Assembly (NCBI GenBank): GCA_964016885.1
Contig: OZ024743.1
Span: 149,234,001 to 149,298,000 of the forward strand
Direction of reading: 5' to 3'
From: Eledone cirrhosa
Lineage: Eukaryota
DNA length: 64,000 nt
The notes beneath the pieces are model-generated. The model ran no database searches. It was given only the letters and a program-made list of their open reading frames with translations, and was not told the DNA's origin. How positions within the stretch are numbered: position 1 is the stretch's first letter; every line of letters starts with the position of its first letter. The position numbers and the translations under genes were made by a program. This document shows, piece after piece, positions 19,921 to 55,827 of this stretch.

Positions 19921-19928
<8 letters not shown>

Positions 19929-20113
19929 AGATCAAAAGATGGTTAAATGAGTTCCATGTATTTTATTATGCGCATTTCAAAAACAAATATCATCATGCAA
20001 TAACATTTGTGTTTTCATCAGATAAAATATGAGGACATGATATGAAGGTTAAAAACACTTGTGGATAGTGCAGTTTTAAATCAACATATCGACATATCTT
20101 TTGATCTTATATA
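19921..20113. mobile_element. Short MITE-like element next to (TA)n
   Basis: Terminal inverted repeats aatatataagatcaaaagat / atcttttgatcttatatatt. Confidence 0.6.
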
Positions 20114-20205
20114 TTATGTATACTCCAGTCCTACAAACTGTAGAGTGCTTCTTATCCGATATCTGCATTGCTTTATTGTACTACAATAAAACTCACCTCC
20201 TACAT

Positions 20206-32489: not shown

Positions 32490-33932
32490 AGATGGATAGA
32501 AAGATATAGATATATATTATATTATATTATATTATATATATATATATATATATATTGTTTCAAAACATACTTGTCATTTATACTCGCTAAGAATGTAACT
32601 TCTAATTTGAATGGAAGGAGATGGGTGATGTGTTGGTGTAATGGTAGCACAGTGTTCTGGATAACCAAAGATGTGGATTCGACTCCCATGTACGTCAATA
32701 CTCATCTTTTTCCATTTATCTGAGAGTTCTAAATCCCATTATCAGGCTAAAATTTCTTTAGTCAAAAATACGGTAAAAAAGCTATTCTATTTTCTAATTT
32801 TAAACCTGCTCACTGTTTCAAAACATACTTACTTGTCATATATACATATATGTATATGGAAGATTCTGGAGGGGTTGACACACCTCACTGAGTGTGCAAC
32901 TGTGTGTTACCATTTGTTGTTGTGCTACAAAACTAGTCTGGAAACGTTTTGATGCCACCTTGGATATATATATAATAACATCATATTGCACTGGAGACTG
33001 CATATTGCTCCCACATTTTATACAGTTTACTGAATGCCTTTTATCAGCACCTGAGTTGCTGTCATGTCTGAGACACAACTGAAGAGTCCTCTTGACACTT
33101 TTTTAGTAAGTATTCTATAGCTGGATGACTTTCCTATCATCAAATCCTTTACAATGTGTGCTGTGTGAATTTTATATTGCCAGCAACACAAGTAAATTGT
33201 CTTGCCTGAAACATATCTGAAGAAGCCTTTCAATCCTTCATCCATAAAAAGTTAGAATCGTTTCATGAAACCAGTCAAAGTTCTAGATTAGTTTAGAAAA
33301 TAATTGAAACACATTTGAAAATATAGTAAGAAAAAGGTGAATATTTATGAAAGAGTGTGTGTGTATATATATATATATGTATGTATGTGTGTGTGTGTCT
33401 GTATGTCTGTCTGCGTCTGTGTGTTTGTGTGTGTGTATAAATATACATTTAAACTAATAATATATGTAATTCTGTATAAATAAACAATTTGTAAGAGAAA
33501 AAAAAATTAATACCAAATATATACAGAAAATATTTAAGAATGGCTAAAAAAAAGATGAGATGTGAAGAATGATAAAATGAAAAGAGAAAGAAAAAAAAAA
33601 GCATTTTTCTAAATCTATTCACATCAAAACATTCACATTTTCCCAAAAGTTAACCTTCAGGTTACATCTGTCTGCATTTTAGCAAATATTACACAGATCA
33701 AGAAAGATTCAGGCTTTGAAATTAAACATGGATTTCGTCTGAAAAACATGTTTCTCAGTGTGAAGTTAAAAGTAATGTTTTAAAGCCACGACTCGTTCCA
33801 CTTAAGAGACAGTTCTCAATCGGCTGCTTCCTTAAATTACAATCCATTCCTGATTCACTAATATATAAGTCCTACCAGGAAGATGAAAAAATATTATTTT
33901 TAGCAAAATTACATTTATTGATAGTTATGTGC

Positions 33933-34122: not shown

Positions 34123-34830
34123 ATAAGTATGTATACGTACATACATATATGTATACAGCCGCACAGTATTATGTATATATATATATATACATACAGCTCA
34201 GGACATGGCAGCGATAATGAGGGACAGAGACCGCTGGAGAGAACTCGTCCATGGATCTCGGGAATTTTACCCGCCTTAGATAGATATATACATACATGCA
34301 CACATATACACATGTACGTATGGATTCACCGAACATTTATTATATTTAAGTAACAGCCGTACTAAGAGTGAGAAATGAAATTTCGTTTCATTTTTTTCCG
34401 TTTATCGTTTACGGTGCGCCCAGCCGATTAACTCGCTCGATATGAAAATTAGGCTGCTCAGCCGTTAATATGCATAAGGAAAGTATATACTTTCAGACGT
34501 TCAATCATCTGGCAGGAAGGTATACGGTGCTGACGATAGCTAATAAACTGAAGCTAGTACAGCGTTCCTTTGTCAGTGTTGAATAAATGGGCAACGATGG
34601 TTGCTCGACACTGTACGGCTTAGTTCGGGATGTTTGTTTACAAACACACCGAGCATTATAATAAATGTTCGGTTAATCCATACGTACATGTGTATATGTG
34701 TGTATGTATATATATATACATACTACTGTGCGTCAGTATACATATATGTATGTACGTATACATACTTATATTTAAGTAACAGCCGTACTAAGAGTGAGAA
34801 ATGAAATTTCGTTTCATTTTTTCCGTTTAT
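34123..34830 (+). mobile_element. Homologue of the 50271-50794 unit with direct redundancy plus an inverted 5' arm
   Basis: Direct repeats at 34340-34405 and 34766-34830. An inverted arm at 34123-34344 (interrupted by an RTE-like scrap at ~34195-34280) matches 34657-34770. Internal sequence aligns by eye to the minus strand of 50660-50794. Confidence 0.72.
34524..34565 (+). ncRNA. Degenerate hammerhead ribozyme, homologue of 50565-50609
   Basis: acggtg CTGACGA tagctaataaact GAAG ctag TA cagcgt. The core has GAAA>GAAG and stem II is weak; it lies at the equivalent position of a homologous repeat unit. Confidence 0.5.
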
Positions 34831-50225: not shown

Positions 50226-50270
<45 letters not shown>

Positions 50271-50277
<7 letters not shown>

Positions 50278-50789
50278 CAAATAACGAAACGAAATTAAAT
50301 TTTGTTTCGTTTGTAACTCACTTTTGTATGACTGACGCTTAAACAATTAAGTTAAAAATGTACATCCACATATGTATACTGAAATACTAGTATGCATATG
50401 AATACACACACGTGTACATATGTAGATGTACCGAGTTTTTCACTGGACACTTTACTGTGAGTGTCCAGCTATTCTGTATGTAAACACACAGACAAACCGG
50501 TTTTTAGAGTCATACTGGTTTTCGAGGAAACACCTTTCCTCTATTCTCCAGAAAGCCAGACAGGAATATTGGACTAGTTTCGATGTTGTTACATCTCATC
50601 AGCAATATTTACCTATCTTCCGGCCTTTCTAGAGAATCGTAAAAGCACATATCGTTATATGCTTTTTCTATGAAAATTAGTAGTGGGCAGACTAATTTGC
50701 ATAGAGCGTGAGTACGTACCGGTTCAGCGGAGACGATAAAAACAAATAACGAAACGAAATTAAATTTTGTTTCGTTTGTAACTCACTTT

Positions 50790-50794
<5 letters not shown>
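50271..50794 (-). mobile_element. Non-coding hammerhead-bearing unit (465-nt period, 59-nt terminal direct repeat) in (TA)n
   Basis: Identical repeats at 50271-50329 and 50736-50794, with the ribozyme inside and (TA)n on both sides. Confidence 0.8.
50565..50609 (-). ncRNA. Type I hammerhead ribozyme (minimal, palindromic stem III)
   Basis: Minus strand: aatattg CTGATGA gatgt-aaca-acatc GAAA ctag TC caatatt. It has a 7-bp stem I, a 5-bp stem II, an intact core, a GUC cleavage triplet and an ACTAGT palindrome. Confidence 0.9.
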
Positions 50795-50838
<44 letters not shown>

Positions 50839-51064
50839 CAAATTAAGATGACAGATAAAAGTTTTTAAATGTTTCAAGAACTTTTATCTGTCATCTCAAT
50901 TTGTTCTATATGCTCCGTGTTAAATATGTCACCTATCTGCTTCTACTCTTCAATGACACTTCTCTATATTCTATCTGTAATGACATAAACACATTGAGCT
51001 TAAATATTATTCACTGGCAATTTCTCATCTGCTACTTCAATATGTATGTGATTACACACACACA

Positions 51065-52141: not shown

Positions 52142-55100
52142 TCATCATCATCATCATCATCAACGTTTAACGTCCGTGTTCCACGCTTGCATGGGTTTGG
52201 ACGGGGGTAGTCCCACTTGAGGCAAGAGTGATTGTCTTGCTCGCATAGGACTGTCTGGCAGGTTTTCTACAGTTGGATGCCCTTCCTAACACCAACCACA
52301 TTTACAGTGTGGGTCTGGGAGGTTTTTACCGTGTTGCCTACACGGCCACATTACAGCGTGGACTGTGTGTTTTTTTGTCGTGACACCTACACGATCTCAT
52401 TTGTTTCGGCCTCGATGGCGCGGCACCAACATAACTTTACATAGAACGGGGTGGTGTGGATGGGGTGGGGGCGGGGGTGGTGGGACGGGGTGTATTTTGT
52501 TAGAGATGCCTACTGGCTGGAGTAGGTTTTACTATATATTTAGGTAAGGCGGGTCTTCTCTGTTACTGAGTACCGCCAAAGGTCTCGGTCCAGTGACATT
52601 GTCTTGGAGAGGTGTAAGTGTGTGATGTCGGAGTTTATCAGCTCGTCCCAGGTTTTCCTAGGTCTGCCTATTCCGTGACTACCGTCTATCTTTATTGCCC
52701 TGCACTTTGTTATACAGCTATCGACTTTCATGCGCATCACGTGTCCATACCAACCTAGCCTTCTCTCGAGTAAACAACATCTGATCCCTCTTATCTCTAA
52801 TTTTTTCCTTAGTTCGTTTATGCTTTGCTGTTCACGTATATTACTGTTACACATCCAGCGGAGCATGCAAGCTTCGTTCCTCTCTAGTCTGCGTATATCC
52901 TCTGCACACAATGCCCAGGTCTCACTGCCGTGCAGCATTGCTGTTCGTATGCAGGCATCGTACAACCTGCCTTTCATTTTTAGGGAGAACCCTTTAGCAG
53001 CTAATAGTGGTATAAGCTCTCTGAACTTTTTCCAACCAGTTCTGACTCTAGCTACAGTACTTTCAGAGCACCCTCCCCCACTGCTGATTTTATCGCCCAG
53101 GTAACGGAAGCTGTCCACTATTTCTATAGAACCCTCTGCGCAATTGAAAGAGCTAGTAGTTTGTGGGCACTTGCTGCTACTTATTGCACCAGAGCACCGG
53201 CCACATGTAAAATCTATGTTCTTAGTTAGCTTACCTGTGATCCCACTACATCTTTTATGCACCCATACTTTGCATTTAGGACATAAAATGGAGTTTCTAC
53301 CTACGCCTTTCCTACACACCGAGCACGACCATTTCCCAGAAGGGACCGCCGCCTTGTTTTCTTTCCTACAAACTAGTACTTTGGTCTTAGCCAGGTTAAT
53401 TTTAAGTCCTTTTGACTCTAGGCCGTGCTTCCATGTTTGGAATTTCTTCTCTAGCTCGGCCATTGATTCCGCTATGAGTGTCAGGTCGTCTGCGTATAGG
53501 AGTTCCCATGGGCAGCCTGTCTTGAACTCCTCTGTTATAGCCTGAAGGGCAATAATAAATAGTAGTGGGCTGAGAACAGAGCCCTGATGGACGCCAACTT
53601 TTACGCTAAACTCTTCACTATATTCGTTGTTAATTCTAACCTTGCTGACTGTTTCTTTATACATGGCTTGTATAGCCCTCACAAGCCATTCGTCAACGCC
53701 TAGTTTTCTAAGAGCCCACCAGATAATGGAGCGGGGGACTCTGTCGAAGGCTTTCTCCAAGTCGACAAAAGCTAAGTAGAGGGGTTTACCTTTAGCTAGG
53801 TACTTCTCCTGTAGTTGTCGTACTATGAAAAGAGCGTCTGTGGTACTTTTGCCTGACACAAACCCGAACTGCATTTCATCTAGGTCAATTCTCTCTCTGA
53901 TTAGTTGCGCTATTACTTTTTCCGTGACCTTCATGACCTGGTCGATTAATTTAATGCCTCTATAGTTACTCCTATCTAGGGCGTCTCCTTTACCCTTATA
54001 ACAGTTAACGATGATGCTGCTATGCCAGTCCTTCGGAACAACCCCATTCTGTACGACTTGGTTAACTATGCGGGTGACCATGGTGTGTCCCACCGTGCCA
54101 GATGCCTTCAGCATCTCAGCAACTATTTCCGAAGGCCCAGCCGCCTTACCCGTCTTCATATCCTTGATTGCCTTACTTATTATACTCCCCTCGACTAACA
54201 CTGCTGGTCCCTCTATTGGGTCGATATGGGGGAGACTGCCTTTCTCCCAATTATTCTCCCCATTTAGTAGCCTTTCATAGTGACACTTCCAAGCTACCTT
54301 CTTATCAGCGTCGGTGATGGCAAGTGTGCCATCGTCGTTTAGTACACACTTCTCCCCGACAATATCACGGTTTTCCTTGACGCATTGCCTAGCAATCCTG
54401 AACACCTCACGTTTTTGGTCATCGCGTTGTAGAACATGCTTGAACTTTCTTTCCTCAGCTTCCCTTCTTGCTAAGTACACTTGTCTCCTAGCTTCCCTCC
54501 TGGCCACTTGATAGTCCTCTCTACTTCCCCCATCCCGCCATACTTTCCAAGCCTGCTTTTTGGCCTTAATTGACCCCTCCACCTTACTGTTCCACCACCA
54601 TGTTACTCTCCTCCTGCCTACAGGCCTGCTCCAGCCACAGACTTCGTCTGTCGCCAACAGCAGGTTTGCTTTCAGAAATTCCCACTCTCCCTCTATATTG
54701 TCCGACTCTAAATGTTCTTCCTTACTGTCGAAAGCATCAAGTAATATGTTTTGAAATTTATTCCTGGCTGTGGGGTCCTTTAGCTTCCATATTTTTCTCC
54801 TGAGGATAGTCCTCTTCTGCTCTCGAGTACGTCTCGTCCTGACTATGAGGTCGCTAATTATCAGTCTATGTTGGGAGGTGCATTCTTCATGGGGGAGGGA
54901 TTTAGTGTTAACAACAGACACTCTGTCACGTCTTCTGGTAAGGATATAATCTACCTGGCTTGTGTGTTCCCCGGATCTATAGGTGATCAGGTGATTGTCA
55001 CGTTTTTTGAAGTTAGTGTTACAGATAGTTAGGTTATTTGCATCACAGAATTCCAGGATTCTGGAGCCTTCCTCATTTCTAGTACCAAACCCATAGCCTC

Positions 55101-55687
55101 CATGGATTTCGTCGTAGCCGTCACAATGTTGTCCAACGTGACCATTTAGGTCGCCTGCGATAATTATATAGTCACTGTCGGATATTTGGGAGGTAGTTAG
55201 CATCAGTGTCTCATAGAATCTGTCTTTTATAGCGCCGGGCAGTCCGGATTGGGGTGCGTACGCAGATATTACTGTCACCGTAGTTCTATTGAGGACAAGT
55301 CGTATTTTAATTATTCTGTCGTTCACTCTATTTACGTCTATTATCTTATCTGCCCACTTTTCTGCTACCATGATTCCTACTCCACCCAGCCCATCGTCGT
55401 TTCCCACCCAGAAAAGCTTATAACATCGTTTTTTACCCTCAATGAACCTAGCAGACCCACCCCTCCACCTGGTCTCTTGAATACAACAAACATCGACCTC
55501 CTTACGTTCAAGCATTTCTACAACCTCGTTAGCGCGACCCTTTAGGGTGCCTACATTTATGGTACCAACTCTGAAGTTTTGGATTGTGTTTGGGGGTTGG
55601 GGGCGGTGAGGGGCGGGGGGCGATGGGGTTATGTTAGCCGTCCGCGGTCGAAACAATGAGGAGTGCTCGCATTCTCGTCCAAGAGGT
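52142..55687 (-). mobile_element. Near-full-length RTE LINE including 3' UTR and (GAT)n tail
   Basis: The ORF above is followed on the minus strand by a ~400-nt 3' UTR ending ...cacggacgttaaacg(atg)n. The same UTR occurs at 46201-46600 and, inverted, at 61225-61640. The 5' end abuts an AT microsatellite and is probably truncated. Confidence 0.9.
52540..55656 (-). CDS. Intact ORF of an RTE-clade non-LTR retrotransposon (APE endonuclease + reverse transcriptase + PHD-type zinc finger)
   Basis: 1038-aa uninterrupted ORF. APE motifs: GTINVGTL, IQETRW, SAYAPQ, AGDLNGHVG, QVDYIL, SQHRLI. RT motifs: NYRGIKL, QFGF, AFVDLEKAFD, GVHQGSVLSPLLF, YADD, FRYLG. RTE-type C-terminus: LHGSETW, RRLGWYGHV, GRPRKTW. 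The annotated start is TTG; there is no in-frame ATG before the endonuclease. Confidence 0.95.
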   Translation of the reverse strand: MFRPRTANITPSPPAPHRPQPPNTIQNFRVGTINVGTLKGRANEVVEMLERKEVDVCCIQETRWRGGSARFIEGKKRCYKLFWVGNDDGLGGVGIMVAEKWADKIIDVNRVNDRIIKIRLVLNRTTVTVISAYAPQSGLPGAIKDRFYETLMLTTSQISDSDYIIIAGDLNGHVGQHCDGYDEIHGGYGFGTRNEEGSRILEFCDANNLTICNTNFKKRDNHLITYRSGEHTSQVDYILTRRRDRVSVVNTKSLPHEECTSQHRLIISDLIVRTRRTREQKRTILRRKIWKLKDPTARNKFQNILLDAFDSKEEHLESDNIEGEWEFLKANLLLATDEVCGWSRPVGRRRVTWWWNSKVEGSIKAKKQAWKVWRDGGSREDYQVARREARRQVYLARREAEERKFKHVLQRDDQKREVFRIARQCVKENRDIVGEKCVLNDDGTLAITDADKKVAWKCHYERLLNGENNWEKGSLPHIDPIEGPAVLVEGSIISKAIKDMKTGKAAGPSEIVAEMLKASGTVGHTMVTRIVNQVVQNGVVPKDWHSSIIVNCYKGKGDALDRSNYRGIKLIDQVMKVTEKVIAQLIRERIDLDEMQFGFVSGKSTTDALFIVRQLQEKYLAKGKPLYLAFVDLEKAFDRVPRSIIWWALRKLGVDEWLVRAIQAMYKETVSKVRINNEYSEEFSVKVGVHQGSVLSPLLFIIALQAITEEFKTGCPWELLYADDLTLIAESMAELEKKFQTWKHGLESKGLKINLAKTKVLVCRKENKAAVPSGKWSCSVCRKGVGRNSILCPKCKVWVHKRCSGITGKLTKNIDFTCGRCSGAISSSKCPQTTSSFNCAEGSIEIVDSFRYLGDKISSGGGCSESTVARVRTGWKKFRELIPLLAAKGFSLKMKGRLYDACIRTAMLHGSETWALCAEDIRRLERNEACMLRWMCNSNIREQQSINELRKKLEIRGIRCCLLERRLGWYGHVMRMKVDSCITKCRAIKIDGSHGIGRPRKTWDELINSDITHLHLSKTMSLDRDLWRYSVTEKTRLT

Positions 55688-55827
55688 ATAATAATAATAA
55701 TATTAATTCATATATATACATATATCCACATACACACACCTATATATATATATTGATACAAACATATTTATATATGCATACACAGAGATACATACTTATA
55801 CATATAGATATCAATATATATAGCCAC

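Follow-up and report, generated by a model that had tools for sequence, protein, structure and literature searches.

Results

The insertion and its parts

At positions 50271-50794 of the window (the whole 64-kb stretch of Eledone cirrhosa DNA that was analysed), the minus strand carries a non-coding retroelement of tandem units, set between two (TA)n runs. Its parts are as follows:

50271..50794, minus strand: whole insertion, 1.13 units of a non-coding tandem-unit retroelement (non-LTR retrozyme or non-autonomous Penelope-like element (PLE) type)
50271..50735, minus strand: complete 465-nt unit, 36% GC, stops in all six frames
50736..50794, minus strand: 5'-truncated start of a second unit (pseudo-LTR), meeting (TA)n at a short TA-like overlap
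50559..50617, minus strand: type I hammerhead, predicted cut at 50572/50571
50271..50345, minus strand: 'tail' between two family-wide 3' ends, the long end at 50271 (used at this locus) and the short end at 50340-50345
50283..50311, no strand assigned: tail hairpin just upstream of the long 3' end, with a second copy at 50748-50776
50229..50270, no strand assigned: (TA)n target, left side
50795..50837, no strand assigned: (TA)n target, right side

The copy is a single arm that starts at the long end and stops 59 nt into the second unit. A sequence-only reading of this DNA had correctly recognized the two identical 59-nt repeats (50271-50329 and 50736-50794, 100% identity, spacing 465) but regarded them as terminal repeats, whose identity would point to a recent insertion. 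They are not the terminal repeats of a fixed element and really represent the 5'-truncated start of a second tandem unit, and this pseudo-LTR cannot be read as an LTR clock, because the exact 5' join of the window copy is shared by 12 insertions genome-wide, as opposed to 1,995 that share the exact long 3' end joined to (TA)n (reversed-pattern control 0). The copy is indeed young, as the same reading had held, with 2 differences between the window unit and the nearest sampled unit; sampled units of the family have 461-471 nt, mostly 466, and one deleted unit has 421 nt. Identical direct repeats at both locus ends would also be expected of an LTR-type non-autonomous element similar to plant LTR retrozymes, with the 59-nt ends as short LTRs, but the ribozyme is of type I and sits outside the repeat, the same 5' join occurs at only the 12 loci mentioned, and the overlap length differs from locus to locus, with 5' ends spread over the whole unit. 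The variable 5' ends refute this reading, to which we attach practically no probability. Coding or rolling-circle translation of the unit is ruled out by the stops in all six frames, with 6-10 stops per turn in each of them, and miRNA-like matches at 50354-50440 were far under the Rfam thresholds. The insertion is an ordinary truncated copy of its family. Directly after the right (TA)n run, a 39-nt inverted repeat (50831-50911) is possibly another small two-armed insertion or a MITE.

The hammerhead ribozyme and the fold of the unit

The minus-strand hammerhead that had been recognized from the sequence is real and belongs to type I. Its stem I is formed by AAUAUUG/CAAUAUU (7 bp, 50609-50603 with 50571-50565) and extended beyond a UA bulge by GAUAGG/CCUGUC, the core CUGAUGA lies at 50602-50596, stem II has 5 bp and the loop AACA (GAUGU-AACA-ACAUC), and 3' of stem II follow GAAA, the CUAG palindrome (helix III), and UC. 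The ribozyme had been called perfect, which holds for the core and for stems I and II but not for helix III, which has only 1-2 bp around the palindromic CUAG. At gathering thresholds, Rfam gave no hammerhead match across the whole 64-kb window. With its UA-bulged extended stem I, short A-rich loop 2, and weak helix III, the ribozyme resembles newt/axolotl satellite 2, Schistosoma-type hammerheads, and Hammerhead_HH9 (RF02275), but it stays below the gathering score (33.7 bits, E 9.3e-7, on the 524-nt stretch, versus 52 bits), because helix III is nearly absent. The exact core occurs in 1,633 copies in the genome (reversed-pattern control 0), core and cut site are substitution-free in 184 of 196 full units, and the core is near-invariant in 15 sequences from young and old families. 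Across stems I and II, 91.3% of the cells are paired and 8 pairs show double changes, whereas slid controls reach 38-46%; this covariation comes mostly from the split between two lineages, and few independent lineages contribute to it. As judged from the sequences, the ribozyme is thus a type I hammerhead: it has the CUGANGA / GAAA / UH core, and covariation backs helices I and II.

Dimer-dependent cleavage has been described for short palindromic helices III (PMC4209133), and dimer-enhanced cleavage has been demonstrated for the axolotl hammerhead (PMC7229834). For a natural dimer at L043, the dimer fold was calculated at -214.1 kcal/mol and two monomer folds at -203.8 kcal/mol; relative to the free minimum, the dimer-active fold costs 4.5 and the two monomer-active folds 14.8 kcal/mol. 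A lone ribozyme with such a helix III is thus predicted to cut poorly. The locus had been proposed as the best candidate for an active circular RNA, which does not hold: with one ribozyme it cannot itself yield a circle, and it is a poor source of circles because its single ribozyme has a 1-2-bp palindromic helix III that is predicted to need a dimer. Tandem arrays, for which a search had been suggested, exist in the genome and reach about 20 units, and homogeneous arrays such as L043, L187, L036, and L064 are better circle candidates.

The unit is strongly structured, as had been claimed, and the four hairpin arm pairs quoted in support were all found in the sequence. Folded as a circular monomer, the ribozyme strand reaches -151.0 kcal/mol, versus -94.3 +/- 5.6 kcal/mol for 60 dinucleotide shuffles (z -10.1), and the other strand has a z of -7.8. 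In this circular fold the core is paired away (p 0.86). Units of the young and old families fold strongly in 8 of 8 cases (z -7.3 to -13.0), and the controls gave z -2.5 for flank, +0.4 for a LINE, and -0.3 for the last 465 nt of the pLTR of the autonomous family A described below. Changes between subfamilies broke 10 pairs versus 15.5 expected under random placement (P 0.02), 6 versus 14.0 (P 0.0003), and 6 versus 8.3 (P 0.15), whereby the two significant comparisons are related to each other and the third is not significant.

A large family with older relatives

The 3.0-Gb genome is repeat-rich. A DNA search with the unit gave at least 149 matches in the best 40 of 914 candidates scored, many of them at 465-466-nt spacing, and a looser core pattern that includes related families matched 31,905 times (control 5). 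With about 32,000 related cores, ribozyme repeats may form a measurable part of the Eledone cirrhosa genome; the main text of a recent octopus repeat annotation (PMC13282606) does not contain the words 'hammerhead' or 'ribozyme'. An older relative lies in the window at 34340-34830 on the plus strand. It aligns to the unit end to end and has a unit of about 430 nt, a partial second unit, a (TA)n 3' end, and a hammerhead core that is damaged (GAAG). Its best genome matches are 92-95% identical (2,923 candidates), and its family likewise shows both 3' end classes.

Two fixed 3' ends and variable 5' ends

Loci were picked for mapping by similarity or by position along one contig. Duplicates (L038 and the second L037 copy) and insertions with less than 300 nt of element were left out of the counts, and L184, L201, L205, and L207 were additionally left out of the 5'-end count. 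A local segmental triplication places identical insertions with their flanks at L037 3047-3748, L037 5553-6254, and L038 3918-4619.

The 64 insertions counted divide into 44 with a pair of arms in inverted orientation and 20 with a single arm. On the ribozyme strand, the 3' ends fall at two sites about 70 nt apart, which correspond to window positions 50271 (long) and 50340-50345 (short) and thereby delimit a tail of 69-74 nt. The two-armed insertions combine one long and one short end in 39 of 44 cases, and neither long+long nor short+short was seen (0 each), with one end unclassified in the other 5; in the position-picked subset, 18 of 20 are long+short. Classified 3' ends adjoin TA-rich sequence in 92 of 101 cases, and both arm types average about 2.5 units. 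We infer that both tail 3' ends are reverse-transcription start sites; the tail agrees with the two internal start sites that were found in vitro for an anole PLE (PMC11167929). In run X1 (kind of run not on record), loose ends were found at 50736, the unit position that equals 50271, and at 50340.

The 5' ends, in turn, are variable and spread over the whole unit. Only 1 of 103 lies within 5 nt of the cut site, versus 2.2 expected, so that the template was continuous there and reverse transcription crossed the cut site; 10 of the 103 5' points lie on the unit boundary as alignment artefacts. These ends bear on a route in which the reverse transcriptase builds tandem cDNA from ribozyme-cut linear monomers, switching at the 5' end of each monomer to the 3' end of another, with no circle involved. 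Template jumping is known for R2 enzymes, and it would likewise turn monomers into multimers, but 5' ends are not overrepresented at the cut site, most full units have kept core and cut site as described above, and jumps should mix molecules, whereas haplotypes are fixed along arms. This route therefore appears very improbable to us.

The PLE signature (PMC8557442) consists of partial tandems, inverted copies with truncated 5' ends, a tail on one side, and insertion into microsatellites, and the Eledone family shows all four of these structural features.

Haplotypes along the arms

In two-armed insertions, 159 sites covered by at least three units are fixed for a variant in all units, 9 of them private among the sampled loci; 215 further sites vary in a single unit, 31 in a subset of one arm, and 19 in a subset in both arms. 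The 19 are mostly near-fixed sites or alignment edges, and the 31 show that long arrays undergo local duplication or conversion. Between units of opposite arms there are 2.3 substitutions, as against 13.3 (median 7) between units of different insertions. At L187 (6 of 6), L064 (5 of 5), and L036 (4 of 4), all full units of the array have a single substitution haplotype, and subfamily haplotypes are fixed in many arrays of 4-9 units. Exactly 9 matches to the L042 haplotype occur in the assembly, and all of them lie within the L042 insertion, divided 3 and 6 between its two arms. A second test variant with 30 matches is array-wide in L187, is carried by all unit-spaced matches at the C21 locus, and is scattered in the C5 array. 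At L189 (2 sites) and L195 (1 site), variants are present in the first-made unit of both arms and absent from later units.

These patterns have to be weighed against a template that is an uncleaved linear multimer transcribed from a source array, with the same dual priming by a PLE enzyme, an incidental ribozyme, and homogeneity that stems from young or converted sources. The in-register first-unit variants at L189 and L195 speak for such a template, as does the finding that the anole PLE inserts uncleaved linear RNA in vitro with no need for ribozyme activity (PMC11167929), and the read-through of the cut site is compatible with it, too. However, a linear multimer cannot exceed the unit number of its source, nor can it carry a new variant into every unit, whereas many subfamily haplotypes are fixed over arrays of 4-9 units, one of them found nowhere else in the assembly; a monomer-to-multimer step is therefore needed. 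A private haplotype could stem from a source array that is missing from the assembly. The strong fold of the whole unit, which the tested part of the autonomous pLTR does not share, is a further point against a linear multimer, and we consider this template rather unlikely. A closed circle most simply fits both the monomer-to-multimer step and the read-through of the cut site, and the array-wide haplotypes, as far as they can be read from the assembly, favour rolling-circle copying of a monomer circle.

It has also been proposed (bioRxiv 10.64898/2026.07.22.740005) that arrays grow in place: a PLE would insert single units or short arms, which would then expand like a satellite through unequal crossover, slippage, or extrachromosomal DNA circles, with gene conversion homogenizing the arms. 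Scattered one-arm subset variants at L039, L051, L183, L184, L052+53, and L207 agree with such growth, but arrays free of internal differences occur at several lengths (L187, L064, and L036, see above), and the average of about 2.5 units holds for arms of both types with exact PLE-type ends. In-place growth accounts better for later growth than for the birth of arrays, and as the origin of the arrays it seems improbable.

The search for sequencing runs returned none registered as RNA. Four of six listed runs (X1, X4, X5, and X6; kind not on record) were compared with the element and a control LINE, whereby contigs cannot give strand, ends, or level. In run X4, which is labelled as another organism, a 495-nt contig covering window positions 50273-50737 closes on itself (464 + 31) at depth 9.7 and carries variants absent from X1; the control LINE stretch gave 1 contig (depth 2.2) in X4. 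The contig could stem from trace RNA in which the unit is abundant, or from trace DNA of which only the homogeneous repeat assembles, and it was set aside as evidence for a circle.

Autonomous Penelope-like elements in the genome

The genome contains 10,596 GIY-YIG candidates. The PLE proteins that were scanned come from long open reading frames with a reverse transcriptase, and 3 of 4 have a Pfam GIY-YIG match. In families A-D and F, a cysteine motif precedes the endonuclease, as described for Neptune and Nematis (PMC8557442), and these families terminate in (TA)n. Family A, which encodes reverse transcriptase and GIY-YIG endonuclease, has copies that are 96-98% identical at the protein level, and its 3' ends likewise fall at two sites, separated by about 62 nt; 15 of 19 inverted pairs combine a long with a short end, in a sample partly collected with a query that contains the long end. 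Neptune-like hammerheads are present in family A (L096, L097, L104), D2 (L114), F (L115), and D (L102). Where the standard core reads CUGANGA they have UUGA.AA, and their palindrome is CCGG, which is why standard descriptors miss them. The 3' UTRs of these six elements are microsatellite-rich and 0.7-1.3 kb long. The eukaryotic named relatives of a local PLE protein are molluscan. Several close relatives (P0023, P0041, P0057, P0060, P0062, P0069, and P0114) are labelled as bacterial gill symbionts of bivalves, probably due to host contamination of metagenome bins.

An autonomous partner with a homologous unit was searched for in several ways. The young unit had no match above microsatellite noise to seven sampled PLE ends; 150 of the 10,596 GIY-YIG candidates were scored and 50 loci examined, and two pattern searches for other CUAG-type ribozymes covered 60 loci and 7 wider stretches, neither yielding a unit homologue with an open reading frame. 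Families B and F, which gave high alignment scores, were rejected as unit homologues, as the scores were due to microsatellite noise. The tail of the older retrozyme aligns weakly with family A (z 5.3), and both end at a TTTAT site. These searches turned up no autonomous PLE whose pLTR is homologous to the unit. The link to Neptune is therefore drawn entirely from the shared target and the end geometry, and on these grounds the helper is probably a Penelope-like reverse transcriptase-endonuclease of the Neptune clade. Because the long-ORF Neptune-like elements share target and geometry with the family, enzyme, template, and target could be combined in one assay. Ribozyme repeats and Neptune-like elements were also seen nested in each other's (TA)n tails (L178, L140, L145, L063, and L106), which results in multi-family clusters.

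Discussion

Our analysis suggests, with a probability of roughly 0.6, that the locus is a 5'-truncated insertion and that the template of its family is likely a predicted circular RNA of 465 nt, which a Penelope-like enzyme, probably from the Neptune clade, copies into (TA)n. In the proposed mechanism, tandem arrays elsewhere in the genome would be transcribed, and adjacent ribozymes would pair via the CUAG palindrome and release monomers. A host ligase would close these monomers, and the circle would hide the core in a protective CUG/UAG helix. The PLE protein would then nick both (TA)n strands and prime at the two U-rich tail sites, and each reverse transcriptase would go round the template a varying number of times, crossing the former cut site. 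Finally, the two cDNAs would be joined together to give inverted arms, or one cDNA would be joined to the target to give a single arm. The window copy would be such a single arm, joined after 1.13 turns, and with its one ribozyme it is most likely a dead-end product. Long arrays may afterwards also expand locally.

A circular RNA template together with a PLE helper has already been proposed as a hypothesis for animal retrozymes (PMC7229834), and circles and their ligation by RtcB have been demonstrated for coral, mussel, and axolotl retrozymes (PMC7229834). A link between retrozymes and PLEs has also been argued in a 2026 preprint (bioRxiv 10.64898/2026.07.22.740005), which describes the evidence on the life cycle as limited and reports in vitro cleavage for only 1 of the 9 Xenopus retrozyme dimers. 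The Eledone family makes this open question about animal ribozyme circles testable. The family is young, with numerous and scattered copies, so that every insertion is a record of the reaction. Private haplotypes that run through whole arrays suggest a bottleneck at the monomer stage, and the strict rule of one long and one short end links the two start sites found in vitro for a PLE to the two strands of one target cut. It is conceivable, at somewhat less than an even chance, that both arms of each two-armed insertion were copied from one and the same circle in a double rolling-circle reaction: a dimeric Neptune-type enzyme would prime both (TA)n strands at points 70 nt apart on the 465-nt circle, with the two polymerases chasing each other. 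In this extended scenario, the approximately 32,000 ribozymes would stem from successive waves, the fold of the whole circle would be under selection, and the 464-nt contig of run X4 would be a trace of the circle. If double rolling-circle copying is true, the genome directly preserves, like a fossil record, the retrotransposition of circular RNA in an animal.

At the sequence level, the family has the defining features of a non-LTR retrozyme, with a GC content of 36% (below 50%) and no true LTR. The window locus fails the test for an 'active' non-LTR retrozyme, for which two ribozymes at the locus are demanded (Li et al. 2026), whereas many other loci of the family pass it. In common with metazoan non-LTR retrozymes, as far as these are described in the pertinent parts of PMC7229834 and bioRxiv 10.64898/2026.07.22.740005, the family has tandem units that are non-coding, low in GC, and equipped with a single type I hammerhead each, a short palindromic helix III that suits dimer cleavage, a predicted circle with strong self-pairing, and autonomous PLEs that coexist in the genome. 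The mussel retrozyme (350-390 nt) is a molluscan precedent for the Eledone unit (465-470 nt). Unlike the metazoan retrozymes covered in those parts, the Eledone arrays are dispersed, mostly two-armed and inverted, inserted in (TA)n, and characterized by two fixed 3' ends; moreover, an autonomous-PLE pLTR with homology was not found for the Eledone family, as compared to 21 of 57 Xenopus families or their matches in the corresponding part of the preprint.

The relationship to PLEs is similarly two-sided. Pseudo-LTRs from partial tandems, inverted copies with truncated 5' ends, a one-sided tail, microsatellite targeting, and a sense-strand hammerhead are shared with elements of the Neptune/Nematis type and with non-autonomous PLEs such as MRC1 (PMC8557442, PMC11167929), and so are two internal reverse-transcription start sites, which are presumed for the Eledone family. 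The Eledone unit differs from the PLEs described there by having no open reading frame and a tail of 69-74 nt instead of the reported 30-40 nt. Its ribozyme is of the canonical extended type, recognizable by C3-G8 and the loop-contact bulge, unlike the minimal variant with UUGA.AA and CCGG that occurs in the local families A, D2, and F, and the unit is highly structured, which the tested pLTR end of the autonomous family is not. Plant LTR retrozymes, as presented in sections of PMC7229834 and bioRxiv 10.64898/2026.07.22.740005, are also ribozyme-processed non-autonomous retroelements with a proposed circular RNA template, but they have type III ribozymes within true LTRs, PBS/PPT, and 4-bp target duplications, whereas the Eledone ribozyme is of type I and the family lacks true LTRs.

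Non-LTR retrozymes are thus known as a group, and what is new is a retrozyme family with an unusually clear mechanistic footprint. In the main text of the 2026 preprint, the terms 'tail' and 'target site' do not occur, and 'inverted' occurs once in an unrelated context. Reports on cephalopod hammerheads or retrozymes, or on a long+short end rule for retrozymes, were not found in the openly accessible main texts that were searched.

The window contains further repeats. A third hammerhead repeat is located at about 19928-20145 on the minus strand (core at 20021), with a long stem II and the sequence GAAA-UGCGCA-UA, and is apparently a small two-armed insertion between (TA)n runs; its motif, or the end of it, flanks several other loci. 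A weak tRNA-like match (34.4 bits) at 32627-32697 on the plus strand is probably the head of a tRNA-derived SINE. On the minus strand at 52540-55707, an unbroken LINE open reading frame codes for 1,055 aa with endonuclease, reverse transcriptase, and PHD finger, and this LINE has a very high copy number in run X1.
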